64,000 nucleotides of DNA, from positions 920,605 to 984,604 of the forward strand of contig OZ241365.1 in the NCBI GenBank assembly GCA_965200555.1, written 5' to 3'. Numbering within the stretch: the first letter of the stretch is position 1; each line of letters opens with the position of its first letter. The position numbers and the translations under genes were made by a program. Positions 3,751 through 62,591 of the stretch are shown one piece after another. The DNA is from Dehalococcoidia bacterium. GTDB lineage: Bacteria > Chloroflexota > Dehalococcoidia > UBA2979. The notes beneath the pieces were generated by a model, which saw only the letters and a list, made by a program, of their open reading frames with translations, made no database searches and was not told where the DNA came from.

Positions 3751-4740
3751 ATGGCCGAGCTGGGCAGCATCACGAACGTGGACCCGCGCACCGTATGGCC
3801 GAACGAGGCCGGCGACTTCACGCCGTGGCTCGCGGAGCACGCCGACCTGCTCGGCGCGGCGCTGGGACTGGAAATCGAGACGGAGCAGCGCGAGGCCGCG
3901 GTCGGCGCGTTCAGCCTCGACCTGCTCGGCAGGGAGGTCGGCAGCGATCGCGTCGTGATCGTCGAGAACCAGCTGGAGCGCACCGATCACGGCCACCTCG
4001 GCCAGCTGCTCGCCTACGCCGCCGGCCTCGACGCGAAGATCGTGGTCTGGATCAGTCCCGACGTGCGCGAAGAGCACCGCGACGCCATCCACTGGCTCAA
4101 CGAGCAGACCACCGACGCGGTGGCCTTCTTCGCCGTCGAACTGGAGGTGTGGCGGATCGGGGAATCGCTGCCCGCTCCGCGCTTCAACGTGGTGGCAAGG
4201 CCGAGCGGATTCCAGCGGACGATCATACAGAGGACATCTGCCGCACCAAGCGAACGCGGCATCGCCTACCAGCAGTTTTTCCGTGACCTTGTGGGGCGGT
4301 TGCACGCACAACATCCCGGCTTTGCCCGCACTAATCTCGATCTGATCCGCTATGACAACTGGACAAGCTTTGGTGCGGGCCAATCCGGGTTCTCGATCGA
4401 GGCAGCGTTCGCACGCGATCGGTTCCGCGTCGATCTCTACATTTCCAATATGGGTACCGAACGGACCAGTGCAGCCTTCAACAGCCTGCATGGAAGCCGC
4501 GAAGCCGTAGAAGAAGAACTCGGCATGGCATTGGAATGGGAGCGGCTCCCGCGGACGTTCCGGGTAGCGGCATACCGGGATGGCGGTATCGACTCTGCCG
4601 AGGCCGTACTCGAAGCGCACAAGCGCTGGGCCGTCGACCTGCTCCCCCGCTTCCGCGACGCCTTCCAGCCGCGCATCGCCGCGCTCGACCTCGACGCGCT
4701 CGCCGCCGAGGCGTTCGAGTACGAGGAGGACGACGCATGA
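3751..4740 (+). CDS. NucS/EndoMS-like PD-(D/E)XK nuclease domain protein with DUF4268-type C-terminal region
   Basis: 329 aa. The N-terminal region has the LDLL...[25 protein letters not shown] pattern, matching the RecB-like nuclease core of NucS (DLL...VEIKR...QLTRYL) with ENQ in place of EIK. A GAGGGGG RBS lies 10 nt upstream. The stop TGA overlaps the hemB ATG (ATGA at 4737-4740). Family assignment (DUF4268) is from memory of Pfam and unverified. Confidence 0.6.
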
Positions 4741-20640: not shown

Positions 20641-20718
20641 TCGCGCCCCTCGCCCCGCGGGCCGGGGGTATACTCGCGGGCGCGCCGGCGGCCCGCCCGC
20701 CGGGGATCGGTTCGCGCC
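20641..20718 (+). promoter_or_regulatory. Conserved upstream element U1 (CCTCGCCCCGCGGGCCGGGGGTATACTCGCGGGCGCGCCGGCGGCCCGCCCGCCGGGGATCGGTTCGCGCC-ATG), putative promoter/leader with -10 TATACT at 20669-20674
   Basis: The element repeats nearly identically before each paralog (U2 21796..21871 with TATACT 21832-21837; U3 22925..23002 with TATACT 22953-22958). Confidence 0.45.
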
Positions 20719-21669
20719 ATGCGGTGGCGCTTGGCGTCCTTCGGTCTCGCGTTCCTCGCGATGGCGACCGTTGCCGTCGCGGTCTCCGTGCGCGGCGGCG
20801 GCCCGGCGCAGCCCCTCGTGGCGCCGACCGCGACCGTCGCGCCCGATGTCGCGCCCACCTCCCCGCCGATCCCGCGGGTGGCGCTGGGCCGCTATCTCGA
20901 GGGCGGAGGCACCTACGCCTTCCCCGGCGGCGCCTGGATCTTCGACGTGCCCGAGGGCATGCAGCTGCAGCACCACTGGCGGGCGAGCGGTGGCAGCGCA
21001 ACCTCTTACGGGTTCCTGAATCAGGCGACCGGCGCCTCTTTCAGTTTCAACGTGAAACCGGACAGCGCAGAGTTCCAGCTACAGGCACAGGCCACAATTC
21101 CCGCAGCTCGCGAGCTCGCTTCCGTTTGGCTGGACGCCGTAGAGGCGTCCGTCCGCCGCCCGCCGGGCTTCGTGGAGCCTCCGCCCACGCCCGTCCCGGG
21201 GCCGGGCGCGAACCCCGACGGCGTCCCCTACCTCCGCGGCTACGGCCTCCACGAAGAGGTGTTCGCGGGCGGGCGCACCTACGCCACTCCCGACGACCAG
21301 TGGCTCGTCGACGTGCCGGCCGGGCTCAGCGTCATGTTCCACGAGAATACCCAGGCCATGCCGACCTGCCTGGCACCCTCGACGGCGGCCTCGTGCGGTG
21401 AAGCCGTCGACACCTACGGTTTCGACGCCGTCGGGATACGGTCGAGCGTCTACATCAACAAAACGACGGGCAAGTTTGCTGGACGGAGCGGGGTCGTCAA
21501 CCCGCAGATGGATGCGTTGGCTGCTTCGTTCAAATCGGTTCGCGCCATGCGGTGGCGATGGGCGTCCTTCGGTCTCGCGTTCCTCGCGATGGCGGCCGTT
21601 GCCGTCGCGATCACCGTGCGCGCCGGCGACCCGGCGCAGCCCCTCGCGACGCCGACCGTTCGGTGGTGA
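20719..21669 (+). CDS. Secreted paralog P1 (signal anchor MRWRLASFGLAFLAMATVAVAV + two copies of a GGRTY...DVPxGM module), C-terminally fused in frame to a truncated next unit
   Basis: Read from the track translation. After ...MDALAASFKSV the ORF reads through RAMRWRWASFGLAFLAMAAVAVAITVRAGDPAQPLATPTVRW*, which is the N-terminus of another unit and indicates an unequal-crossover junction. Confidence 0.55.
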   Translation: MRWRLASFGLAFLAMATVAVAVSVRGGGPAQPLVAPTATVAPDVAPTSPPIPRVALGRYLEGGGTYAFPGGAWIFDVPEGMQLQHHWRASGGSATSYGFLNQATGASFSFNVKPDSAEFQLQAQATIPAARELASVWLDAVEASVRRPPGFVEPPPTPVPGPGANPDGVPYLRGYGLHEEVFAGGRTYATPDDQWLVDVPAGLSVMFHENTQAMPTCLAPSTAASCGEAVDTYGFDAVGIRSSVYINKTTGKFAGRSGVVNPQMDALAASFKSVRAMRWRWASFGLAFLAMAAVAVAITVRAGDPAQPLATPTVRW

Positions 21670-21793
21670 AGCCGTCGACACCTACCGTTTCGACGCCGTC
21701 GGGATACGGTCGAGCGTCTACATCAGCAAAACGACGGGCGAGTTTGCTGGACGGAGCGGGGCTGCGCTGGCTGCTTCGTTCAGGAAGCCGTAG
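21661..21793 (+). pseudogene. Orphan C-terminal fragment of a paralog unit (GEAVDTYRFDAVGIRSSVYISKTTGEFAGRSGAALAASFRKP*)
   Basis: Out of frame with P1; it matches the canonical unit C-terminus (...VNSQMDALAASFRKP*). Confidence 0.45.
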
Positions 21794-21795
21794 AA

Positions 21796-21871
21796 ACCGG
21801 CCTCGCCCCGCGGGCCGGGGGTATACTCGCGGGCGCGCCGGCGGCCCGCCCGCCGGGGATCGGTTCGCGCC
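21796..21871 (+). promoter_or_regulatory. Conserved upstream element U2 (TATACT 21832-21837)
   Basis: Near-identical to U1 and U3. Confidence 0.45.
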
Positions 21872-22927
21872 ATGCGGTGGCGCTTGGCGTCCTTCGGTCT
21901 CGCGTTCCTCGCGGTGGCGGCCGTCGCGGTCGCGATCGCCGTGCGCGCCGGCGGCCCGGCGCAGCCCCTCGCGGCGTCGACCGCGACCGTCGCGCCCGAT
22001 GTCGCGCCCACCGCCGCGCCGACGCTCACCCCCGAGACAGCTCCGGCGCCCACCCCCACGCCGATCCCGCAGGTGGAGCCCGGCGACTTCCTCGAGGGCG
22101 GACGCACCTACGCCCTCCCCGGCGGCGCCTGGATCTTCGACGTGCCCGAGGGCATGCGCCTGTGGCACAACGGAGACGAACCGGGGAAGAACCCCGGGGA
22201 CCCGCCGAACGGCTTCGGCTTCATGGACCGCGTGACCGGCTCCCTGATCACCATCTACCTGCGGCCGGACGGGTCCCTCGACTTCTACGGCTTCAACTAC
22301 GGGTCCACTCCCGAGGCCCGCGAGCTCGCGGACGCCTGGCTGCCCGCGATCGAGGCGTCCCTCCGCCGCCCGCCGGGCTTCGTGGAGCCTCCGCCCACGC
22401 CCGCGCCCGTCTTCCCGGGTCCGGGCGCGAACCCCGACGGCGTCCCCTACCTGCGCGACTACGGCCTCCACGACGAGGTGTTCGCGGGCGGGCGCACCTA
22501 CGCCACTCCCGACGACAAGTGGCTCGTCGACGTGCCGGCCGGGCTCAGCGTCATGTTCCACGAGAATACCCAGGCCATGTCGGTCTGCCCGCCGGGCTCG
22601 AGGGCCTCGTGCGGTGAAGCCGTCGACACCTACCTTTTCGACGCCGTCGGGATATGGTCGAGCGTCTACATCAGCAAAACGACGGGCAAGGTCGCTGGAC
22701 GGATCGCTGGACGGAGCGGGGATGTCAACTCGCAGATGGATGCGTTGGCCGCTTCGTTCAGATCGGTTCGCGCCATGCGGTGGCGCCGGGCGTCCTTCGG
22801 TCTCGCGTTCCTCGCGATGGGGGCCGTTGCCGTCGCGATCACCGTGCGCGCCAGCGAGTTTGCTGGACGAAGCGGGGTCGTCAACTCGCAGATGGATGCG
22901 CTGGCTGCTTCGTTCAGGAAGCCGTAG
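21872..22927 (+). CDS. Secreted paralog P2 (most complete copy; signal anchor, PT linker, two GGRTY...DVPxGM modules, C-terminus ...ASFRKP)
   Basis: 351 aa. It contains the in-frame micro-unit insert RAMRWRRASFGLAFLAMGAVAVAITVRA before the canonical C-terminus. Confidence 0.55.
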   Translation: MRWRLASFGLAFLAVAAVAVAIAVRAGGPAQPLAASTATVAPDVAPTAAPTLTPETAPAPTPTPIPQVEPGDFLEGGRTYALPGGAWIFDVPEGMRLWHNGDEPGKNPGDPPNGFGFMDRVTGSLITIYLRPDGSLDFYGFNYGSTPEARELADAWLPAIEASLRRPPGFVEPPPTPAPVFPGPGANPDGVPYLRDYGLHDEVFAGGRTYATPDDKWLVDVPAGLSVMFHENTQAMSVCPPGSRASCGEAVDTYLFDAVGIWSSVYISKTTGKVAGRIAGRSGDVNSQMDALAASFRSVRAMRWRRASFGLAFLAMGAVAVAITVRASEFAGRSGVVNSQMDALAASFRKP

Positions 22928-23002
22928 AACCGGCCTGCCCGCGGGCCGGGGGTATACTCGCGGGCGCGTCGGCGGCCTGCCCGCCGGGAATCGGTTCGCG
23001 CC
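22925..23002 (+). promoter_or_regulatory. Conserved upstream element U3 (TATACT 22953-22958)
   Basis: Near-identical to U1 and U2. Confidence 0.45.
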
Positions 23003-23737
23003 ATGCGGTGGCGCTTGGCGTCCTTCGGTCTCGCGTCCCTCGCGGTGGCGGCCGTCGCGGTCGCGGTCGCCGTGCGCGCCGGCGGCCCGGCGCAGCCCCT
23101 CGCGGCGTCGACCGCGACCGTCGCGCCCGAGGCCGCGCCCACCGTCGCGCCGACGCTCACCCCCGAGACAGATCCGGCGCCCACCCCCACGCCGATCCCG
23201 CAGGTGGAGCCCGACGCCGACCTCGAGGGCGGACGCACCTACGCCCTCGGGGGCGCCTGGATCTTCGACGTGCCCGAGGGCATGCGCCTGTGGCACACCG
23301 GGGGACCGCCGGGCGGCTTCGGCTTCATGGACCGCGTGACCGGTTCCGTGATCACCATCTACCTGCAGCCGGACGGGTCCCTCGACTTCTACGGCTTCAA
23401 CCACGGGTCCACCCCCGAGGAGCGTGAGCTCGCGGACGCCTGGCTGCCCGCGATCGAGGCGTCCGTCCGCCGCCCGCCGGGCTATGTGTACCCTCCGCCC
23501 ACGCCCGCGCCCGTCTTCCCGGGGCCGGGCGCGAACCCCGACGGCGTCCCCTACCTCCGCGACTACGGCTTCCACGAAGAGGTGTTCGAGGGCGGGCGCA
23601 CCTACGCCACTCCCGACGACCAGTGGCTCGTCGACGTGCCGACGGGCATCAGCATCCGCTTGGGCCTTGTGTTGGTTATGGCACATACCCTGCATACCCC
23701 GCACCCGCCCGCCACCGAAGCGTATAAAATTTTCTAA
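23003..23737 (+). pseudogene. Paralog P3, C-terminally disrupted
   Basis: Homology to P1/P2 holds up to ...WLVDVPTGISI and then diverges into a lower-GC segment (about 23650-23830), ending KIF*. The canonical C-terminal motif (YLDMLAASFRR) reappears in another frame (ORF 23424..23981), and further unit fragments extend to about 23960. Confidence 0.5.
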
Positions 23738-24116
23738 TGACGCGGACACGGCGGAATGGATAGCCGTCAGCAAGGACAGAGGCAGAGTCGTCGGTATCAG
23801 TGGCCAGCCCGGTCGTCCCGACAACACGTATCTGGATATGCTGGCTGCCTCGTTCAGAAGGAACTCCACGCCTGCAGACACCTCGACGCTCGTCTCCGCG
23901 CTCTGCTGCGCGCTCCTGCTCGGCCTCAACGCAGCACGCCGATCCCGCAGGCGGCGCTCGGCGCGTTCTCGCGTCCCGTAATCCGATCGCCGGCGGGCCG
24001 GACGGCGCGCCGCGCCCGCGCGCCGGCGCGGGCCGCGGGCACGCGCAGGAAGCGCCGCCGCAGCGCGGCGGGCCGCGCCGCTTCACGCGGCGAGGGGCGG
24101 CGCGTACCCTTGAGGC

Positions 24117-28271: not shown

Positions 28272-28916
28272 ATGATCGAGCGAATGCGCGGAAGCGCGGC
28301 GCGGCCCGGCGCGCGCGCGGCGGCCGTGGCGGGCGGGCTGCTGCTCGCCGCCGCGCCCGCCGCGGCCGGCGCGGCGGAGGAGGCCGGCAGCGGCGGCATC
28401 GCCGCGCTCGGCTTCAGCCTGCCCTCGCTGGTGTCCAACCTGATCAACTTCACGATCCTGCTGATCGTGCTGCGGGTCTTCCTCTACAAGCCCGTCCTGC
28501 GGCTCCTCGACGAGCGCAAGGCGCGCATCCAGGAGGGCCTCGACGCCGCCTCGCGCGCGGCCTCCGACGCCTCCGACGCCGAGGCCGAGGCGCGGCGCAC
28601 GATCGAGGACGCCCAGCGCCAGGCGCGCGAACTCGTCGCGCAGGCGCAGGAGGGCGCAGCCCAGCTGCGCGCCGAACTCGAGGAGCGCGCCCGCGCCGAC
28701 GCCGAACAGATCGTCGCCCGCGCGCGCGAGGAAGTGCAGACCGAGCGCGACCAGGCGATCGAACTGCTCCGCCGCGAGTTCGCCGGCCTCACCATCGTCG
28801 CCGCCGAGCGCGTCACCCGGCAGTCGCTCGACCGCGCGGCCCACCAGCGCCTGATCGACGAGGTGCTGGCCGAGGGCGGCCCCGGCGGCGGCGGCGGCCT
28901 GGCGGGCGGAGGCTAG
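28272..28916 (+). CDS. atpF: F-type ATP synthase subunit b
   Basis: It has one TM helix ([20 protein letters not shown]) followed by a long charged coiled coil, and a Gly-rich C-terminal tail. Confidence 0.85.
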
Positions 28917-36164: not shown

Positions 36165-36301
36165 CGTACGCGCAGCGTGCGGCGTGGCGCGCCAGCGGGC
36201 AAGCGGCGGCGCGCGCGCCTCCGGGGATCGAGGGAAACGCGGAGCGCGGCCCCGCCCGCGGCGCGGCGGCGGGCGGGGCCGTACGGGGCGCGGAGCCTAG
36301 T

Positions 36302-37350
36302 TGTAGGTCCCAGGGAGGTTGTTGACAGGCGAGGAGCCTCGCTGCTGCCGTTGCGTGAGCAACAGCGACGACGGCAGGAGGCTCCTCGTGTCCCACCCTA
36401 ACGCACGGTTGACCCCGAAGGCGCGCCTCGACCTCGTGTTGGAGGTCGAGGCCGGCTGGACCCGGGCCGAGGCGGCGCGGCGGTTCCGTGTCTCGCGCGC
36501 CACCGCCGCCAAGTGGGTGCGCCGCTACCGCGGCGAGGGCGAGGCCGGCCTGCGCGACCGCTGCTCACGCCCGCGCCGGTCGCCCGGCATCACGGCGCCG
36601 TCCGAGGCGGAGGCCGTCCTCGGGTTGCGCCGCGAGCGCGGCTGGGGGCCGCACCGCATCGCCTGGGCGCTGGGCATGGCCCCCTCCACCGCATACGCCG
36701 TCCTGCGCCGGGCCGGTCTCCACCGCCGCGACCGGATGCACCGCGTCAGCCGCGAGGTCGTGCGCTACGAGCGCGGCAGGCCGGGCGAGCTGCTGCACCT
36801 CGACGTCAAGAAGCTCGGGCGCGTCCCGCCGGGCGGCGGCAAGCGCTTCGCGCCCGGCTTCGCGGAGACCCGCAGCGGACCGAGGGGCAGGGGCAGGGGC
36901 GGCGGCGGCATCGACTGCGTGCACGTCGCCGTGGACGACCGCTCGCGCTACGCCTACGCCGAGGCGCTGCCGGACGAGCGCGGCGTCACCACCGCGGCCT
37001 TCCTCGAGCGGGCGATCGCCCGCTTCGCCGGCCTCGGCGTGCGGGTGGAGCGGGTGCTCACCGACAACGGCGGGAACTACCTCAGCGGCGCCTTCCGCGA
37101 GATGGCCGCGGCGCACGGGGTGGGGCTGCGGCGGACGAGGCCGTACCGGCCGCAGACCAACGGCAAGGCCGAGGCGTTCATCAAGATCCTGCAGGACGAG
37201 TGGGCGTACCGGCGCGCCTACGGCTCGAACGCGGAGCGGCTCGCCGCGCTCCCGCTCTTCCTGAGCGAGTACAATCACGCCCGTCCGCACGGCGGCATCG
37301 GCGGGGCCGTCCCCGCCTCCCGCCTGTAAACAACGTCCCTGGGACCTACA
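36302..37350 (+). mobile_element. IS481-family insertion sequence (1049 bp) with 28-bp imperfect terminal inverted repeats (TGTAGGTCCCAGGGAGGTTGTTGACAGG / ...CCTGTAAACAACGTCCCTGGGACCTACA) and 6-bp target site duplication CCTAGT (36296-36301 and 37351-37356)
   Basis: The TIRs (26/28 identity) and the flanking direct repeats were read directly. The single ORF encodes an IS481-type DDE transposase. Confidence 0.85.
36388..37329 (+). CDS. IS481-family transposase (HTH + DDE rve integrase core)
   Basis: GTG start with AGGAGG 7 nt upstream. VSHPNARLTPKARLDLV is the typical IS481 N-terminus, and the DDE-domain motifs include HLDVKKL..., VHVAVDDRSRYAY, and TDNGGNY...NGKAE. Confidence 0.85.
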   Translation: MSHPNARLTPKARLDLVLEVEAGWTRAEAARRFRVSRATAAKWVRRYRGEGEAGLRDRCSRPRRSPGITAPSEAEAVLGLRRERGWGPHRIAWALGMAPSTAYAVLRRAGLHRRDRMHRVSREVVRYERGRPGELLHLDVKKLGRVPPGGGKRFAPGFAETRSGPRGRGRGGGGIDCVHVAVDDRSRYAYAEALPDERGVTTAAFLERAIARFAGLGVRVERVLTDNGGNYLSGAFREMAAAHGVGLRRTRPYRPQTNGKAEAFIKILQDEWAYRRAYGSNAERLAALPLFLSEYNHARPHGGIGGAVPASRL

Positions 37351-37351
37351 C

Positions 37352-37708
37352 CTAGTGGCCGCCGCCCGCGGCGCAGCCGCAGCCGCCGCCACCGCCGGAG
37401 GACTGGGCGTTGGGGGCGTCGATGGTGAAGCCCTTCCGCATCAGGTCGTCCTCGGTGTAGCCGATCGAGGCGCCTTCGAGGCTGACGGCGGCGCCGGGGT
37501 CGACGATGAAGCGCACGCCGTGGATGTCGAGCACGGCGTCGTCCTCGGCGGGGCGGTCGATGCCCATGGCGAACGAGGGGCCGCTGCAGCCGCAGCCGCC
37601 GCCACGCTCGAAGATACGCAGGCCTTGCGCCTCGTCCTCGCGCTGCTGGGTGACGATCATGCCGAGCCGCTGCGCCGCGTCCTCGCTGACGGTGAGGGTG
37701 AGAGTCAT
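37352..37708 (-). CDS. HesB/IscA-family iron-sulfur cluster insertion protein
   Basis: MTLTLTVSEDAAQRL...GLRIFERGGGCGCSGPSFAMGID...GVRFIVD...SIGYTED....GFTIDAPNA...CGC is the IscA/ErpA pattern. The stop codon lies inside the right-hand IS target duplication. Confidence 0.75.
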   Translation of the reverse strand: MTLTLTVSEDAAQRLGMIVTQQREDEAQGLRIFERGGGCGCSGPSFAMGIDRPAEDDAVLDIHGVRFIVDPGAAVSLEGASIGYTEDDLMRKGFTIDAPNAQSSGGGGGCGCAAGGGH

Positions 37709-48770: not shown

Positions 48771-50453
48771 GTGACGCGGAAGCTGGCGCTGGCGGGACTG
48801 GTCGTCGCCGTGCTCGTCGCGGGCGCGGCGTCCGCGCTGGCGCAGGACGCAGGGTCCGAGGTGCGGATCGCCGCGCGGCGGCTCGCCGACGGGCGCGTCG
48901 AGTTCGCGCTGCAGCCCCGCTCCGGCGGCGGCTGGGGCGCGCGCGTGCTGCCGTCCAGCCGCTACTTCCCCGCGAACGCCGCCGTCGGCCGCTGGCTCAG
49001 CTCCTCGCCGGTGGACGCCGGCGGTGTCGAGGTGCGGATCAGCGCACAACGGCTCGCCGACGGGCGCGTCGAGTTCGCGCTGCAGCCGCGCGCGGGCGGC
49101 GGCTGGGGCGAGCGCGTCCTGCCGTCCAGCCGCTACTTCCCCGCGAACGCCGCCGCCGGCCGCTGGCTCAGCTCCTCGCCGGTGGCGCTCGGCGGCGCGG
49201 CGGCGATGACGGGCGACGATCCCGCCTCGTGCGCCCTCGCCGACCATATCGACCGCGTGAGGGCCGCGACGTTCCAGGTGCGGACCGCCTCCGGCGCCGG
49301 TACGGCCTTCTACATCGGCAACGACGAGTGGCTGACGAACCACCACGTCGTCGAGGACGCGACGCGGGCCGAGCTGGTCCACGGCGGCACTCGCCTCTCC
49401 GCCGCCGTCGCGGGCAGCCTGCCGGGGTACGACCTCGCGCTGCTGAGGGCGCGGCCTCCGTCCTCGGTGCGCCCGCTCCGCCTCGCCGCCGCGAGGCCGG
49501 CGGTGCTGGCGAGCGTGGCGGTGGTGGGGTTCCCGCCCCCCGTCTCGGGCACCCCGTCGGCCACCCGCGGGGTGGTGTCGAAGCACGCCCCGTTCTCCCA
49601 ATTCCCGGACCAGCTCGACGGCAGCGGCGTCGTGCTGCAGACCGACGCCGAGATCAACCCCGGCAACAGCGGCGGCCCCATCGTCGACGGCTGCGGTACG
49701 GTGGCCGCCGTCGCCACGTTCAAGCGGTCCTCGTCGCAGGACGGACGCGACGTCGACGGCATCGGCTTCGGCGTCGCCGCCGAGACGGTCGCCGCGCGGC
49801 TCGCCCAGCTGCGCTCTACCGAGCATGTGGCGGGAGGCGCGCCGCAAGCCGCCGCCGAGGCCGCCTTCAATACCTGTATGGCGAACTGGGGCGACACCTA
49901 TGGCAACCAGATTGGGGCCACTCTCGCCGCCATCCGCACTGTTGAGGACATCGAGGACGAGGTTACCGGGTGGGGCGTACCCACCTCTTACATTACCGCC
50001 ATCTACGCCGACCCCAGCATCATTCCCCCCGGTGGTCTCTTCGTAACCCCGGGGTTTCCCCTCGGCACTGATAGCCCAGGCGTTTTCAGAATCTTCGGTG
50101 GCAACTTTGACAACCTGCGGGCGCTGATCCAAGGGGCCACTGGGGTTGCGATTATTCGCGACGACTCGATCGGTTTCGCTACAGCGGCGACTCGTCGCGA
50201 GACGCTCTCTGTGGACAGGTTCTTCTTTCGGCTGGATATTATTCGCGAGACTTGGCATTACTCCATCAGCCCGTGGTTCGCTCCTGCCGATCAGGGGCCG
50301 TTGAGTCTGGACTTCACAGCTGCGAAGAACTCTCTGGAGGCTAACAGGCTTCGGCTGGTGGGGCTGCAGGCGGCTGACCGAGACAACTGGGAACGCTACT
50401 GCGCGTCGGCGGCTGGACAAACTGTTGGGCCGGACGAGCATACCCCCCGATAG
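48771..50453 (+). CDS. Secreted trypsin-like (S1/chymotrypsin family) serine protease with two N-terminal ~52-aa tandem repeats and a C-terminal extension encoded by lower-GC DNA
   Basis: Signal peptide MTRKLALAGLVVAVLVAGAASALA. The repeats are EVRIAARRLADGRVEFALQPRSGGGWGARVLPSSRYFPANAAVGRWLSSSPV, present twice. The catalytic His is in TAFYIGNDEWLTNHHVV and the Ser in NPGNSGGPIVD. From about 49860 the coding DNA drops to roughly 58% GC. Confidence 0.7.
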   Translation: MTRKLALAGLVVAVLVAGAASALAQDAGSEVRIAARRLADGRVEFALQPRSGGGWGARVLPSSRYFPANAAVGRWLSSSPVDAGGVEVRISAQRLADGRVEFALQPRAGGGWGERVLPSSRYFPANAAAGRWLSSSPVALGGAAAMTGDDPASCALADHIDRVRAATFQVRTASGAGTAFYIGNDEWLTNHHVVEDATRAELVHGGTRLSAAVAGSLPGYDLALLRARPPSSVRPLRLAAARPAVLASVAVVGFPPPVSGTPSATRGVVSKHAPFSQFPDQLDGSGVVLQTDAEINPGNSGGPIVDGCGTVAAVATFKRSSSQDGRDVDGIGFGVAAETVAARLAQLRSTEHVAGGAPQAAAEAAFNTCMANWGDTYGNQIGATLAAIRTVEDIEDEVTGWGVPTSYITAIYADPSIIPPGGLFVTPGFPLGTDSPGVFRIFGGNFDNLRALIQGATGVAIIRDDSIGFATAATRRETLSVDRFFFRLDIIRETWHYSISPWFAPADQGPLSLDFTAAKNSLEANRLRLVGLQAADRDNWERYCASAAGQTVGPDEHTPR

Positions 50454-50682
50454 TGAAGGCTCGTGCCCCTCGAACTTCAGCGCCGTCGTGACCGAACCCG
50501 AGCGTTAGCCGCGCCGATCCCTCGCGCGAGCCTCGATGCGTCGCGCGGCGTCAGCCGGCGGGGGCGAGCGGGGCCGCCGCCGGGTAGAACACAGCGGATG
50601 CTCGCCCGACAGCGGGGGCATCAAAGGCACGCCAGCTCCCAACGGCCGCTGGTTCCACTTCATGCACATCCTGCTGTGGCAG

Positions 50683-51786
50683 CTAGGTCAATCCCAAAAG
50701 GAACTCGCGAGGCTGGCGCACACGCTTAATCCTGAAGTTGGCGACACGTACCCCATCATCAGCAAGGTACGTTGTCTTGCGAGACCCTTCTCGCACTGCA
50801 GTGATGTAATCGTTGAACCGCCTGATCATCACATCCCTTTTCTCCCAATCAAGAGAATCCCACCAAGTGGGAGCAATACAGAGACTTTCGGACGCTTCGA
50901 TCAAGAAACGAATCAAGGCATCAGGCATGTCTTCCCGTCCTATGCTCAGTAGCGACTTGGCGAATCGCACCGGGGCTGTTGATCCACGCAACCAGGACAG
51001 AATAACCGCACCACTTCCGGGAGTTGCTATACTGGAAACAAGCAGTTGCTCCATGGGGATATCGACTTGCATCTGATTCTGTAGCAAATTTCCTTTAAAA
51101 TCGCAGTCTGGCATCCATGCGAAGCTCGCGAGTATCGGCGGATGTCGGTCCGTTTCCAACACGAGAGACCGGATTTCATCGAAACGGCTCATCTGCAGGT
51201 AACGATCCAAATCCGCTTTGACCCTTTGCAAATCCGCACGCCCGAGACGTATGCCTATTCTCTGGTGGTTCAAAAACTCTTGAGTCTCCTTTTGTCCCGC
51301 TGGGGGCATCCCGCGGTCAGCGTTGAGTTTAGCCCACTGGATGTGTTGTTCTGCTCCGATCTTGAAGTACAGCTCACGACTGGCCGCCCTGAAAGCGAAG
51401 AGGAAGTTCTGCTGATCCGAAAAATCGATGGTATTCCCTTTCTCGATGGGATCGAACAACGCATCATGCGCTTGGCAGAATCCTCTGAAGATAGATGCTT
51501 GGCTGACACCGAACAACCTCGGAAGCACTTGGTGGTCACTCACTGCGCGCCTGAAGTAATAGACATGTCCACCCTCAGCGATAGCGGACAACATGGCGAG
51601 CTGCACACCGTGGGCGCGTATGGCGGGGCCGCAGCCTGTCGGCGCATCCGGGTGCAAGCATTCCTCGCGCCCGACGAAGTAAGTTTGTTCGGCTCGGTGC
51701 ATCTCAGAAAGACTCAAGGGGGGTTGATCTTCGCGCCCGCGATGGCACTGAGCGAACTCGACGCCAGAGTCACACCAGCACAGCAT
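50683..51786 (-). CDS. SEC-C metal-binding motif protein of unknown function on a ~50% GC island
   Basis: The start is chosen at MLCWCDSGVEFAQCH (C-x-C-x-S-G-x5-C-H, the SecA C-terminal SEC-C motif). The rest of the 367 aa has no recognised domain. The track ORF extends upstream to 51963 in high-GC DNA that overlaps the livM 3' end. Confidence 0.5.
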   Translation of the reverse strand: MLCWCDSGVEFAQCHRGREDQPPLSLSEMHRAEQTYFVGREECLHPDAPTGCGPAIRAHGVQLAMLSAIAEGGHVYYFRRAVSDHQVLPRLFGVSQASIFRGFCQAHDALFDPIEKGNTIDFSDQQNFLFAFRAASRELYFKIGAEQHIQWAKLNADRGMPPAGQKETQEFLNHQRIGIRLGRADLQRVKADLDRYLQMSRFDEIRSLVLETDRHPPILASFAWMPDCDFKGNLLQNQMQVDIPMEQLLVSSIATPGSGAVILSWLRGSTAPVRFAKSLLSIGREDMPDALIRFLIEASESLCIAPTWWDSLDWEKRDVMIRRFNDYITAVREGSRKTTYLADDGVRVANFRIKRVRQPREFLLGLT

Positions 51787-51898
51787 ATCCCGGCGGCCCC
51801 TACCTGCGCTCTGGATGGTAGCACTCCACGTTGCCGTCTCGCAACTGCAGGTCGATACACCCCGACTGATATCGCCGCCCGCGCACGGCACGCGGCGG

Positions 51899-52990
51899 TC
51901 AGCCGGCGAGGGCGCGGAGGCGCGCGCGCAGCGCGGCGAGGGGCGAGCCGGGGCCGCCTCCACCGCCGCCTCCCTCGCCGCGCGGGGCGAAGCGGCTGAC
52001 GATCGCGCGCTCGGGGACGAGGCCCTGCGGGCGCGCCAGCACGAACAGCACGATCAGCAGCCCGATCGCCACCCGCCGCAGCACGAACACGCGCGTCCCG
52101 AGGAAGTCCGGCAGGCTCTCCTGGAACAGCGGCAGCCCGAACCACACGAACGCCACCACCAGCGCCCCCACGACGGCGCCGCGGTTGTTGCCGCTGCCGC
52201 CCACGATCACCATCGTCCAGACGAGGAACGTCATCAGGTTCTCGAACGAGTCGGGCGCGATCGTGCCGTAGCGGTGCGCCCAGATCGCGCCCGCCAGCCC
52301 CATCAGCGCCCCGCCCAGCACGAAGCTCTGCATCCGGTAGCTGGCCGTCCACTTGCCGACCGAGCGCGCGGTGTCCTCGTTCTCGCGGATCGCGCGCAGC
52401 ACGCGGCCCCACGGCGAGGCCGTCGCCCCCCGCACCGCGACGAACACGGCGGCCAGCGTCAGCAGCGTGATCGCCAGCAGCACGAGGTCGTAGTCGATGC
52501 CGCGCTCGCCGGCGGCGGCCTCGAACGGCCTCGGGATGCCGTTGAGGCCGCGCGCGCGGTTGACGAGGCCCTCCTGCGTGTTGGCGATGCTCCGCAGGAT
52601 CGAGGTGATGCCGATCGTCGCGATCGCGAGGAAGTCGTCGCGCAGCCGCAGCGTCGGCAGCCCCACCAGCAGCGCGAGCGCGGCGCCGGCGGCCATGCCG
52701 CCCAGCCAGCCGATCGGGATCGGCAGCTCGTACCCGCCGACGTAGCTCTCGAACTGGCCGGGCGGGTCGAGCGTCAGCAGCGCGCTGGCGTAGGCGCCGA
52801 CGGCGAGGTAGGCGATCACGCCGAAGTTGACCGTGCCGGTGTAGCCCCACTGCACGTTCAGCGCGAGCGTGGCGATGCCGAGGATCGCCGCCGTCGTGAG
52901 GAACCCGACGGTCCAGTTCGCGCCGCCGGTCACGGAGATCTGCAGCGCCCCGTCGAGCGGCAGTCCCGCCAGCCCCGCCAGCGCCTCCAC
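51899..52990 (-). CDS. livM: Branched-chain amino acid ABC transporter permease (LivM-like)
   Basis: It is polytopic and has the LivM pattern ...NFGVIAYLAVGAY...; the C-terminus is Gly-rich. Confidence 0.8.
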   Translation of the reverse strand: MEALAGLAGLPLDGALQISVTGGANWTVGFLTTAAILGIATLALNVQWGYTGTVNFGVIAYLAVGAYASALLTLDPPGQFESYVGGYELPIPIGWLGGMAAGAALALLVGLPTLRLRDDFLAIATIGITSILRSIANTQEGLVNRARGLNGIPRPFEAAAGERGIDYDLVLLAITLLTLAAVFVAVRGATASPWGRVLRAIRENEDTARSVGKWTASYRMQSFVLGGALMGLAGAIWAHRYGTIAPDSFENLMTFLVWTMVIVGGSGNNRGAVVGALVVAFVWFGLPLFQESLPDFLGTRVFVLRRVAIGLLIVLFVLARPQGLVPERAIVSRFAPRGEGGGGGGGPGSPLAALRARLRALAG

Positions 52991-59994: not shown

Positions 59995-60675
59995 TCAGCG
60001 TTCGGCGGCCTGCCGGCGGAGCCAGTCGCGCACGAAGGGGTTGTGCTCGCGCTCGAAGCCGATCGAGGTCTCCTCCATGTGGCCGGGGAGGACGAGCGTC
60101 TCGTCGGGGAGGGCGAGCAGCTTGCCGGTGATGCTGTCCATCTCCTGCTCGTAGGAGCCTCCGGGGAAGTCGGTGCGGCCGATCGAGCCGCGGAAGAGGG
60201 TGTCGCCGCTGAACAGCAGGCCCGCGTCCTCGGCGTAGTAGCTGACGGAGCCGCCGGTGTGTCCGGGAGTGGCGATCACCCTCAGCCGCAGCCCGTCCGC
60301 CTCGACGATGTCGCCGTCGCCGACGTAGCCGTCGGGGGCGGGCGGCCCCTGCGAGGCGTCGAAGCCCATCTGCGAGGCGCCCGCCTGCCAGCCGTCGCGG
60401 AGCAGGCCGAGATCGGCCTCGTGGAGCAGGAAGCCGGCGCCGGTGGCGGCGTGGACGCCCTGCACGCCCATGATGTGGTCCACGTGGGCGTGGGAGTTGG
60501 CGATGGTCTTGATCGTCACGCCCATGTCGCGGGCGAGCGCGAGCACCTCGTCGTGGTCGCCGCCGGGGTCGATGCAGATCGCCTCGCCGGTGCGGCGGTT
60601 GCCGACGACCCAGCAGTTCTCCATGAACACGCCGACGACGATGCCGCGCACCATGAGTTCGTTCGCGACTTCCAT
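59995..60675 (-). CDS. MBL-fold metallo-hydrolase (glyoxalase II-like)
   Basis: HAHVDHIMG (HxHxDH), plus ATPGHTGGS, and later DTLF, ...GH.... Confidence 0.8.
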   Translation of the reverse strand: MEVANELMVRGIVVGVFMENCWVVGNRRTGEAICIDPGGDHDEVLALARDMGVTIKTIANSHAHVDHIMGVQGVHAATGAGFLLHEADLGLLRDGWQAGASQMGFDASQGPPAPDGYVGDGDIVEADGLRLRVIATPGHTGGSVSYYAEDAGLLFSGDTLFRGSIGRTDFPGGSYEQEMDSITGKLLALPDETLVLPGHMEETSIGFEREHNPFVRDWLRRQAAER

Positions 60676-60773
60676 GCCCGCATTCTACGCCCGCCGCGCC
60701 GTCGCGCGAGCCGCCCGCCGACGCCGCGCCTCGCAGCCCTCGATACGCCTCGAGGCGCGGCGCTACGCCGGGC

Positions 60774-60908
60774 CGGGGCCGAGCAGCGCGGCGGCGAGGA
60801 AGCCGACGGCGGCCTCGCGCACGTGCGGGGGCGCGTCGGCGTGGCCGCCGGGGTTGGCGAGCAGGCGCTTGTCGGCGGAGCCGATCGCGTCGTAGAGGGC
60901 GAGCGCGT
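60774..60908. repeat. 135-bp perfect direct repeat (copy A) of the 3' end of the alpha/beta-hydrolase gene; copy B at 61671..61805
   Basis: Identical strings from CGGGGCCGAGCAGCGCGGCGGCGAGGAAGCC... to ...GTCGTAGAGGGCGAGCGCGT at both sites. Together they flank a 762-bp lower-GC insert (60909..61670). Confidence 0.85.
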
Positions 60909-60922
60909 GGCGTCAGGCTGCC

Positions 60923-61570
60923 CTAAGCGCCCTTCAGGAAGGTCACCGTCACCTTGCCCTTGCTGCGGATACCGCGACGGCCCGCGAGGACGCTCAACCC
61001 GCCGGTCAGGATCAGCCGCCCGGCGTGGATGTGGCTCCCTTGCGTATCCTGCCCCTCGATCCGGTACCCGTTCCTGAGGAGTACGCCCGCTTCGTTCTCG
61101 TAACGCTCGATACCCTTGTCATCGGAGTCGTACTGCCGAACGACCACCGGCTTCGTGTAGCTGCTGGTGATCCGCCCCAGGTCATAAGCGCTGAGTCCGC
61201 CGGGCTGGCCGCCCTCGGCCAGTACCTCGTCGATCAGGCGCTGGTGGGCCGCGCGGTCGAGCGACTGCCGCAGGGTGGATTGCCGTGGATTGCTGGGGCG
61301 CACTGCGATGATGATCAGCCAGAGCACCAGCACGGCGAAGACCAGCCAGAAGACTGGCCAGAAGAAGGGTTCCAGCACGTCCGTGATGGTACGCGCTTCG
61401 GCGGTTCGCTCCGCGGGAGGCCCGAAACAGTCGTCGCGCGCCTCGCACGCTTGCCGAGCCCGCTCAAGCTCTGCAGCGTCCTGCGTCCGATCCTCTGCGG
61501 GCTGCTGTGCACACGCGATCATGAGCAAGGCAATCCACACCAGCGCCCCGGCCAGCAGCCGTCCGTTCAT
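60923..61570 (-). CDS. Lipoprotein-like membrane protein of unknown function (cassette gene), chimeric: contains a 64-nt near-identical copy of the atpF 3' end
   Basis: ATG at 61568-61570 preceded by a GGAAGGAAG RBS. The signal/lipobox is MNGRLLAGALVWIALLMIAC, and there is a second TM helix FFWPVFWLVFAVLVLWLIIIAV. The segment [20 protein letters not shown] is identical to the AtpF C-terminus; the DNA at 61207..61270 versus atpF 28819..28882 has 1 mismatch. The C-terminal ~90 aa is unrecognised. Confidence 0.5.
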   Translation of the reverse strand: MNGRLLAGALVWIALLMIACAQQPAEDRTQDAAELERARQACEARDDCFGPPAERTAEARTITDVLEPFFWPVFWLVFAVLVLWLIIIAVRPSNPRQSTLRQSLDRAAHQRLIDEVLAEGGQPGGLSAYDLGRITSSYTKPVVVRQYDSDDKGIERYENEAGVLLRNGYRIEGQDTQGSHIHAGRLILTGGLSVLAGRRGIRSKGKVTVTFLKGA

Positions 61571-61659
61571 CGGCGTGCTTCCTTCCGGGAACCTGCTCGC
61601 CGCTCCGCGCACCCCGCTGGCCGGGGCGAACTATACACCTCGCCTCACGGCGAGCGGCG

Positions 61660-62400
61660 CTACGGCGGATCGGGGCCGAGCAGCGCGGCGGCGAGGAAGC
61701 CGACGGCGGCCTCGCGCACGTGCGGGGGCGCGTCGGCGTGGCCGCCGGGGTTGGCGAGCAGGCGCTTGTCGGCGGAGCCGATCGCGTCGTAGAGGGCGAG
61801 CGCGTCCGCGCGCGGGAACAGCTCGTCGTCCCACTGCATCACGAACAGCACGGGGCAGCGCAGCCGCGGCGCGTCGGCGGCGAGGCGCGCGTAGAGGCCG
61901 GCCCCGGCGCCCCCGCCGCCGGACGACAGCCCGCACAGCCCGAGCACCGCCGCGCGCGGCCGCCCGTCGGCGGCGACGAACGGCAGCCCGAACATCGTGC
62001 CCATCGAGACGCCGCCGTAGGCGACGCGGGAGCCGTCGATCGCCTCGAGCGCGGCGAGGGCGTCGAGCGTCGCGCGCCAGTCGGCCGCCATCGAGTCGGC
62101 GGCGGCCTCGCCGTACCCGGGTTCCGCGGCGCCGGGGGCGGGGGCGCGGTCGCCGTGGAACGGGCCGTCGATGGCGGCGGCGGCGATGCCCCTCGCGGCG
62201 TAGGCGAGGGCGTAGGCGGTGCGGCTCTCGTCCCGCTTGTGGCCGGCGCCGCCGTGGCCGAGCAGCACCAGCGGCGCGGGCGTCCTCGCGGCGGCGGGCG
62301 TCCACAGCACGCCGGGCACGGTCGCGCCGCCGCGCGGCACGCCGAAGCGCCGCTCGGTTGCGGCGCCGCGATCCTCGGCCTCGCCGATCCACTCCAGCAC
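61660..62400 (-). CDS. Alpha/beta hydrolase (dienelactone hydrolase-like)
   Basis: GVSMGTMFG (nucleophile elbow GxSxG), a C-terminal ...GGHADAP catalytic His region, and a GTG start preceded by AGGAGGatcgAGGAGG. Confidence 0.7.
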   Translation of the reverse strand: MLEWIGEAEDRGAATERRFGVPRGGATVPGVLWTPAAARTPAPLVLLGHGGAGHKRDESRTAYALAYAARGIAAAAIDGPFHGDRAPAPGAAEPGYGEAAADSMAADWRATLDALAALEAIDGSRVAYGGVSMGTMFGLPFVAADGRPRAAVLGLCGLSSGGGGAGAGLYARLAADAPRLRCPVLFVMQWDDELFPRADALALYDAIGSADKRLLANPGGHADAPPHVREAAVGFLAAALLGPDPP

Positions 62401-62591
62401 GCCGCCTCCTCGATCCTCCTCGATCGCCGCGCCTCCCGCGCCGCGCGCCCCTCGGGTTGCGCGCGACGGCGCGGGAGCCTGTATGATGCCGCGCACCGCG
62501 GGCGTGCGCGCGCGCGCCGGCGCGGGTATGATGGCGCGCCGCGAGGCGGAGCGCCGCCGCTGCGGGCGGGGGCGCGGGAAAGGGCCTGACG

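Follow-up and report, generated by a model that had tools for sequence, protein, structure and literature searches.

Integrative elements that use the 3′ end of a gene as their site, among them genomic islands, integrative and conjugative elements (ICEs), integrative and mobilizable elements (IMEs) and temperate phages with tyrosine integrases, bring a replacement gene end, are flanked by attL/attR-like repeats and deviate from their host in composition. The locus described here has the same traits. It lies in a 64,000-nt stretch of the genome of a sponge-associated Dehalococcoidia bacterium (GTDB lineage UBA2979; contig OZ241365.1, positions 920,605 to 984,604; hereafter the window), where one small gene, the cassette gene, stands between two copies of the 3′ end of an alpha/beta-hydrolase gene. 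It is a real single-gene insertion-duplication at a gene 3′ end, without a recombinase of its own. In contrast to the elements above, the unit is only ~0.9 kb long, holds one cargo gene, lacks an integrase, an excisionase and a defined short core, and is apparently inherited vertically. With direct repeats that include the target gene 3′ end (152 nt, 135 of them exact) and a restored target open reading frame (ORF), the unit works like a miniature integrative element, but it lacks an integrase of its own, and its sole gene belongs to no family in Pfam, NCBIfam, PADLOC or PHROGs.

Streptococcal cis-mobilizable elements (CIMEs; reviewed in PMC5704250, catalogued in PMC6323972) are similar in having att-like repeats at a gene 3′ end and no recombination or mobility genes, and the present locus likewise has att-like flanks and no recombination or transfer genes. 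However, CIMEs are defined by a cognate ICE or IME that shares their att sites and carries an integrase, whereas no such partner was found here in the genes checked. CIMEs are also much larger than the ~0.9-kb unit. The structure of the product is identical to that of Campbell insertion-duplication, as known from suicide plasmids and from RecA-dependent translocatable units of the insertion sequence (IS) IS26, where the target is restored on one side and the event can be reversed or amplified through the repeats. Unlike these, the present unit is natural and tiny and has neither a replicon nor an IS. In Streptomyces, amplifiable units of DNA (AUDs) bounded by direct repeats expand in tandem, their repeats and units being kilobases long. 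The likeness to AUDs is that of a repeat-bounded unit able to expand in tandem, which would give closed cycles; amplification at the present locus is only a candidate process.

Two further systems are alike in part. The ‘orphan’ modules of Rhs, contact-dependent inhibition (CDI) and type VI secretion effector loci (PMC5361080) also enter through homology to a gene end and push the old 3′ end downstream as a relic, but there the relics are variant tips of toxins, accompanied by immunity genes, whereas the ends here are near-identical and show no sign of toxin and immunity functions. Integron cassettes are likewise single, promoter-poor genes of ~0.5–1 kb able to exist as circles. In contrast to them, the unit has no attC-like palindrome, core sites, array or IntI, and its flanking repeat is host coding sequence.

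The two repeat copies, 60774–60908 and 61671–61805, are the same over 135 nt with no mismatch, as the sequence-only reading of this DNA had stated, and exact identity extends 0 nt beyond either edge; the distance between them is 762 nt. The wider repeat (A) reaches leftward to 60757/61654 and comprises 152 nt with 3 mismatches, at 60768, 60772 and 60773 (C/G, G/A and C/T differences). When small indels are allowed, the aligned similarity passes the stop codon into the first hairpin beyond it. Between the copies the GC content is 67.2%, whereas the window averages 74.6% (standard deviation 4.5%); the segment is thus among the lowest 5% of 745-nt windows, and GC at third codon positions (GC3) is 0.83 in the cassette gene compared with 0.95–0.97 in neighbouring genes. 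These values agree with the earlier description of a single minus-strand gene, here an intact ORF at 60923–61570, in DNA of lower GC. In the window sequence no inverted repeats are present at the segment boundaries, and no tRNA or Rfam family was found anywhere in the 64 kb.

Comparison with related genomes identifies the ancestral state. We retrieved 97 relatives of the hydrolase, the closest of which (71–72% amino acid identity) are from Dehalococcoidia/Chloroflexota metagenome-assembled genomes, many of them from sponge bins (SB06xx) or chromosome-scale. In at least 15 related Dehalococcoidia species (L007–L020, L022, L024) the gene for a metallo-beta-lactamase-fold (MBL) hydrolase directly follows the hydrolase gene, with no cassette homologue; therefore, the 762-bp segment is an insertion. 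Spacers at these empty sites measure 45–150 nt and align with window 60676–60756; common to them (L007–L011) are a GCGGGCGGCT element and, 7 nt ahead of the start of MBL, a TAGAAT box. In gene orientation, the order at the occupied locus is hydrolase with its present end (A_R), leader P, cassette gene, spacer s, displaced end (A_L), native spacer D and MBL. While A_R is contiguous with the cassette leader, A_L is contiguous with the native spacer, so that A_L and D represent the original gene end and intergenic region. All 3 mismatches between the copies fall at the stop-codon end of the repeat.

The peptide ANPGGHAD (including GGH) is among the most conserved of the hydrolase family, is encoded within A and probably carries the catalytic His. 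The duplication was consequently needed to keep the enzyme, since without it the insertion truncates the hydrolase. The earlier proposal that the segment integrated at a gene 3′ end, the host gene being preserved by a duplication, is thus borne out by the empty sites and by the hydrolase ORF that A_R completes. Coordinates of the features are collected in the table.

Table. Features of the insertion locus and of the source of the atpF-derived patch (window coordinates).
Feature	Coordinates	Strand	Basis
MBL-fold hydrolase gene, conserved downstream neighbour of the alpha/beta hydrolase in relatives	59995..60675	-	Pfam Lactamase_B 3.8e-32
D, native hydrolase–MBL intergenic spacer, with hairpin and TAGAAT box 7 nt before MBL ATG	60676..60756	-	aligns with L007–L011 empty-site spacers; fold
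A_L, displaced non-functional native hydrolase 3′ end, last 48 codons, ends ...LGPGPA*	60757..60908	-	repeat; contiguous with spacer D
s, 14-nt spacer from cassette stop codon to A_L	60909..60922	-	alignment
Cassette gene, intact 215-codon ORF	60923..61570	-	ORF list
atpF-derived patch in cassette gene	61197..61270	-	63/64 match, or 70/74 with 3-nt gap
P, cassette-borne leader/promoter region: stable stem-loop, TATAGT box, ribosome-binding site	61571..61653	-	sequence; fold z-score -3.2
A_R, copy now completing the hydrolase ORF, ends ...LGPDPP*, encodes conserved ANPGGHAD	61654..61805	-	repeat, ORF
Alpha/beta-hydrolase gene, insertion target	61660..62496	-	Pfam Hydrolase_4 and Abhydrolase_1
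Patch source, last ~25 codons of atpF	28818..28891	+	alignment; just beyond Pfam ATP-synt_B match

The hydrolase–A–gene–A–MBL order was also present in independent assemblies of other samples, namely the conspecific L085, L086 and L088 and the sister-lineage L002. L085 (a 17-kb contig) is 98.3% identical to the window, with 3 mismatches and 1 gap between its two copies; for L086 the identity is 96.3%, and its downstream copy has a 27-nt deletion. L088 has the same A_L deletion, and an IS481-like end interrupts its A_L, while contigs L001 and L087 have a 1-nt deletion in A_L near the s|A junction. In L002 the cassette protein is 63% and the hydrolase end ~89% identical, and its own two copies differ at 3 positions. 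All strains, and L002 as well, have a homologous s|A junction in the alignment. Identity of the cassette coding sequence to that of the window was 98.3% in L085 (flanking genes 98.4–98.8%) and 96.9% in L086 (flanking genes 98.0–98.9%). Because the cassette has diverged between strains in step with its flanks, the insertion is old and apparently vertically inherited; it predates the divergence of the conspecific strains and probably also the split from the sister lineage.

The sequence-only reading had taken the 100% identity of the copies as a sign of a recent event. This is not supported, given the shared layout in L085, L086 and L002, a cassette as diverged as its flanks and a relic copy that is decaying. 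The identity of the copies is therefore more probably a product of gene conversion, or of recombination between them, than of recency. Copies within one genome are 97–100% identical, against a difference of ~11% between the hydrolase ends of the two lineages.

The cassette protein consists of a predicted signal peptide with a putative LMIAC lipobox, a Cys-containing helix (extracytoplasmic), one transmembrane helix, an atpF-derived helix and an unannotated C-terminal alpha/beta domain of ~85 aa. The motifs L-M-I-A-C-A-Q and ACEARDDCFGPP are invariant in all full-length homologues. In the AlphaFold model (mean pLDDT 73), a signal helix spans residues 3–21, followed by helix 26–44 and a confident transmembrane helix 63–90; the patch forms helix 95–118, and a small alpha/beta domain covers residues 129–213. 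The invariant motif and the model fit the lipoprotein-type signal and transmembrane layout described earlier, and the predicted topology has a lipid-anchored N-terminus outside the cell and a cytoplasmic C-terminal domain. This domain family is rare, with 280 representatives at E ≤ 1e-3 among 1.84 billion proteins. The domain of the cassette protein matches P0005–P0016 at 1e-18 to 1e-27 over a conserved GxHxHAGRLxLTGG...RSKG core. Fusion to SHOCT or to zinc ribbons is usual: 44 of 85 members carry SHOCT, and others carry zinc ribbons. Identity as ATP synthase subunit b was rejected, as the protein has no ATP-synt_B match and only a ~24-residue AtpF C-terminal tail is common to both. Upstream of the cassette gene ATG there is a GGAAGGAAG motif; scanning revealed neither a consensus sigma-70 promoter in leader P nor a consensus terminator.

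Within the cassette gene, positions 61207–61270 match the reverse complement of 28818–28881 at 63 of 64 nt, a match given by 0 of 100 shuffles; with one 3-nt gap, it becomes 70 of 74. The 63/64 match had been reported before, with atpF coordinates (28819–28882) one base off. The source gene, atpF (ATP synthase subunit b), occupies 28272–28916 (+), with a Pfam ATP-synt_B match at residues 53–181. The patch is read in the same frame as AtpF residues ~183–206, the extreme C-terminal tail just past that match. It is present in all 11 members of the 90% cluster of the window protein (cluster 1) and absent from clusters 2–4; homologues P0002–P0004 and P0030–P0034 lack it. Its right junction, CCCGGCGG, is native cassette sequence also found in L002, and its left junction consists of CACCC with 2–3 nt of filler. 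Because the sister clusters lack the patch and the right junction is native to L002, the comparison shows transfer from atpF to the cassette, after the sister-lineage split and into a gene already resident, so the earlier idea of a stretch captured from atpF stands. The single difference from atpF in 64 nt is synonymous, which fits a post-split age.

The L002 linker was considered as a diverged form of the patch and rejected (local alignment score 20, with shuffles scoring up to 19). A second slippage-type scar, a 10-nt tandem duplication, is located in the linker just upstream of the patch: CAATCCAC(GG/CC), CAATCCACGG/CAATCCACCC (window 61275–61300, minus strand). The C-terminal tail of subunit b contacts subunit delta; that the patch might confer subunit-delta binding is pure speculation by analogy.

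Genes that could move the unit were sought around it. Besides MBL and the hydrolase, neighbours in the window encode ABC permeases, a periplasmic binding protein, a luciferase-like monooxygenase and a 725-aa protein without assigned function. The annotated neighbours (55.6–64 kb) and 10 extra ORFs, a subset of the 54 predicted window genes, include no recombinase, and neither does L085, covered for ~9 kb on the side of the hydrolase and 2 kb on that of MBL. The payload is one gene, with no integrase in the neighbours examined, as already noted from the letters. On the hydrolase side, the ~9 kb of L085 encode HNH, Dcm, Vsr, Yip1, aconitase and a MazE/PIN pair. The Vsr–DNA cytosine methylase–HNH nuclease trio lies at L085 4459–6487, ~3–5 kb beyond the hydrolase and outside the window. 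Relatives of the cassette were absent from JGI metagenomes (two scans, by full-length alignment and by C-terminal domain), IMG/VR, PLSDB plasmids and INPHARED phages.

Several element classes were rejected. An integron cassette does not fit, as folding downstream of the stop codon is no stronger than in shuffled controls (z −1.5 and −0.3) and no attC-like palindrome is present there; a GCCTAAC-like heptamer occurs in some strains, but the window, L086, L087 and L002 have GCCTGAC; and the unit is single, between two conserved housekeeping-type genes, with no array, attC cluster or intI. An IS, a miniature inverted-repeat transposable element (MITE) or a transposon was rejected because there are no inverted ends and the duplication, at least 152 nt, is not of the short target-site type. 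The template and variable repeats of a diversity-generating retroelement were rejected since there is no reverse transcriptase among the neighbours and copy differences are not confined to adenines.

Closed cycles containing the unit were found in metagenome contigs. L001 (955 nt) and L087 (957 nt), from different short-read samples (SAMN12291596 and SAMN12290592), each have an exact 55-nt terminal overlap and hence give units of 900 and 902 nt. Both units hold all of A plus P, the gene and s, opened at different points, and both contigs contain the s–A–P junction; the window holds one copy of the unit. With chromosomal flanks of equal depth, such contigs should end at the branch points; neither does, a hint of an excess of the unit, be it circular or in tandem array. 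The record naming of L001 and L087 resembles that of SPIRE, which is reported to use MEGAHIT (PMC10767986). A third contig, L004 (Logan; 1084 nt, 30-nt terminal overlap), gives a 1054-nt cycle.

L004 and the linear L003 carry a more distant version of the cassette gene (51–56% amino acid identity, without the linker), convergent to pth, which was identified by a Pfam Pept_tRNA_hydro match on a 68-aa fragment. Read circularly, L004 comprises a contiguous ~125-nt pth 3′ fragment, a ~100-nt segment common to L003 and a decayed piece of the hydrolase, in addition to the leader and the gene. The hydrolase fragment reaches 85 nt past the A boundary and lacks the last ~110 nt. L003 runs into a longer pth stretch and has an IS481-derived MITE (~200 nt) after the stop codon. 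At two sites, hydrolase and pth, a gene end of ~125–180 nt is duplicated around the cassette gene. The cassette gene therefore travels with short fragments of host genes, as could be expected of a homology-arm mechanism and equally of a site-specific system with multiple targets. In a by-eye search for a recombination core shared by the hydrolase and pth fragments, only the 10-mer GCGCGAGGCC was found, which was judged uninformative in ~75% GC DNA.

Another contig, L089 (cluster-2 strain), has a different arrangement: at 1473–2021, after the cassette gene and an IS, the 3′ end of a rhodanese gene replaces the relic repeat and MBL. Stop codons on both sides of this IS share a CTAG target. L089 may show the gene in a third genomic context, or else the outcome of a rearrangement mediated by the IS. 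The IS, inserted at the CTAG formed by the cassette gene stop codon, is a 90%-identical copy of a complete IS481-family element in the window (36263–37389; transposase 36319–37329 (+), Pfam rve, rve_3 and LZ_Tnp_IS481), which has imperfect terminal inverted repeats of ~69 nt.

The explanation that we favour, with modest confidence, is a Campbell-type insertion-duplication, in which a ~0.9-kb circle would have recombined once with the chromosomal hydrolase 3′ end through host homologous recombination. The circle would have held the last ~150–180 nt of the hydrolase with its terminator hairpin (A), leader P, one gene and the 14-nt spacer. A single crossover within A would then leave A_R to keep the hydrolase intact and A_L as a dead relic. 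We infer host homologous recombination, presumably by the RecA machinery, because there is no recombinase gene, inverted end or attC-like site and the homology is long. The polarity of the copies, with the mismatches at the stop-codon end, A_L joined to the native spacer and A_R to the leader, is expected from one crossover in A. After insertion, gene conversion would keep the two copies alike. The repeats would permit the unit to loop out or to amplify in tandem, which would explain the closed ~900-nt metagenome cycles, and the unit may still be excisable or amplifiable. The ~70-nt piece of resident atpF was copied in frame into the linker, presumably by microhomology-bounded templated repair or gene conversion.

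Several points weigh against this explanation. One integrated copy with an exact repeat longer than k makes the same cycle in a de Bruijn graph, so that L001, L087 and L004 do not prove a circle or an array. Identity of the copies within one genome needs gene conversion or repeated re-integration from conspecific donors. The related gene of L003 and L004 beside pth, with its duplicated pth fragment, could indicate a site-specific system with several targets. The window covers 64 kb of a genome of ~2.5 Mb, which leaves room for a trans-acting recombinase elsewhere. Finally, the origin of the first circle is left unexplained by the circle model.

A non-autonomous site-specific element, that is, a very small CIME-like unit with A as attL/attR, excised and integrated by a tyrosine or serine recombinase that another genomic locus or a helper element encodes, is unlikely but by no means negligible. 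Identity blocks of 50–180 nt are known for some integrases. The architecture at a gene 3′ end, with a duplication restoring the target gene, is the classic one for such elements; closed cycles came from three datasets; and relatives of the gene occupy the pth 3′ end as a second site, where a gene-end fragment of ~125 nt is likewise duplicated. However, no integrase was found in or near the element or in the neighbour genes checked, and by eye the hydrolase and pth fragments have no short conserved core in common. Co-divergence of the cassette with its flanks and decay of the relic argue against frequent movement, and the phage, plasmid, IMG/VR and JGI collections held no copy.

The unit might instead be what remains of a larger island, one that carried an integrase, entered at the hydrolase 3′ end and lost all but one cargo gene by internal deletion. 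We regard this as quite improbable. It would account for the att-like flanking repeats kept without a recombinase and for GC and GC3 below the host level, and IS481-family elements, active around the cassette gene in relatives, could drive deletions. Yet the same minimal content and the same A|P and s|A junctions are found in the window, L085, L086, L001, L087, L088 and L002, no larger version of the insertion was present among 80 related loci, and there is no scar sequence: the gene ends 14 nt from A_L, and the leader starts at the A_R stop codon.

One-sided homology anchors can trap foreign DNA (PMC5361080 and papers cited there; PMC3240628). A one-off illegitimate event without a circle might have duplicated ~150–180 nt and trapped foreign DNA; this would be homology-facilitated illegitimate recombination (HFIR) of a linear donor with its anchor in the hydrolase end, or else template switching during replication. 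Other microhomology or slippage scars at the locus (the atpF patch junctions and the 10-nt tandem duplication) are in line with such an event, and the hydrolase fragment of L004, extending 85 nt past the A boundary, indicates that the gene once adjoined a longer hydrolase segment. Nevertheless, we consider this reading very doubtful: HFIR usually deletes rather than duplicates recipient DNA, a duplication would by our reasoning need two recipient copies, and the closed cycles from three datasets would have to be pure graph artefacts. An assembly artefact, a collapsed or mis-threaded repeat of the kind that the sequence-only reading had named as its refutation, is almost certainly not the cause, since, even if exact 135-nt repeats can mislead short-read assemblers and the unit appears as separate ~0.9–1.0-kb contigs in several assemblies, independent assemblies span hydrolase–A–gene–A–MBL with the distinguishable copies of L085, L086 and L002, and the window-identical protein P0021 is encoded on a 2.49-Mb contig, a length that makes a long-read assembly the probable source of the window.

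A far-reaching form of the Campbell-type insertion-duplication is distinctly unlikely on present evidence, but can be stated as a whole. Sponge-symbiont Dehalococcoidia would harbour a recombinase-free single-gene minicircle (0.9–1.05 kb) that picks up host gene 3′ ends of ~125–180 nt (hydrolase, or pth in another lineage) as homology arms, integrates by the Campbell route, restores its target and loops out or amplifies, and the protein tail copied from subunit b might contact the ATP synthase stalk.

Observations on the native intergenic region were also made. The TAGAAT box is kept across species 7–8 nt upstream of the MBL ATG (window 60676–60690 and the L007–L011 empty sites), and its conservation suggests a leaderless or near-leaderless MBL transcript. 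In the closest relatives (L005 6715–6845 and L006 1240–1610), the hydrolase–MBL spacer holds palindromic units like repetitive extragenic palindromic (REP) sequences (CCCTCACCCC ... GGGAGAGGG), and the L005 contig stops within them. Since REP-like units fill it in L005 and L006, the spacer appears to be an insertion hotspot in other lineages too.

Elsewhere in the window, a low-GC island at 50500–51960 (51–58% GC vs 74.6%) is probably foreign DNA; its 426-codon ORF (50683–51963, minus strand) has only a weak SEC-C motif near the N-terminus according to Pfam. The gene for a secreted trypsin-like protease (48771–50453; Pfam Trypsin_2, GC3 0.86) is preceded by two 171-nt tandem repeats encoding a ARRLADGRVEFAL-type module, and a fragment of a ARRLADGRVEFAL-repeat gene of this type also occurs upstream of the cassette gene in L003 (205–273). 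Three tandem paralogues of ~245–350 aa (20650–23740; GC3 0.86–0.92) have repeats that are 77–96% identical, and the two of them scanned match no Pfam family. A DUF4268 gene (3751–4740), with a GC3 of 0.82 that is unusually low for the genome, is possibly another acquired gene.

For practical work, the locus carries a warning that exact 135-nt repeats drop the unit from short-read assemblies as ~0.9-kb ‘circular’ contigs. On a conservative reading, it offers a clear natural case of insertion-duplication in which an enzyme gene stayed intact and a datable relic copy remains, it documents an in-frame transfer of ~70 nt from a core bioenergetic gene into an unrelated gene, and it draws attention to a rare unannotated domain of ~85 aa that is usually fused to SHOCT or zinc ribbons. 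Should the unit need nothing beyond a captured gene end and the recombination of its host to move or amplify, it would rank as about the smallest integrative vehicle for genes on record, and would show a route by which orphan genes spread in symbiont populations with few classical mobile elements.

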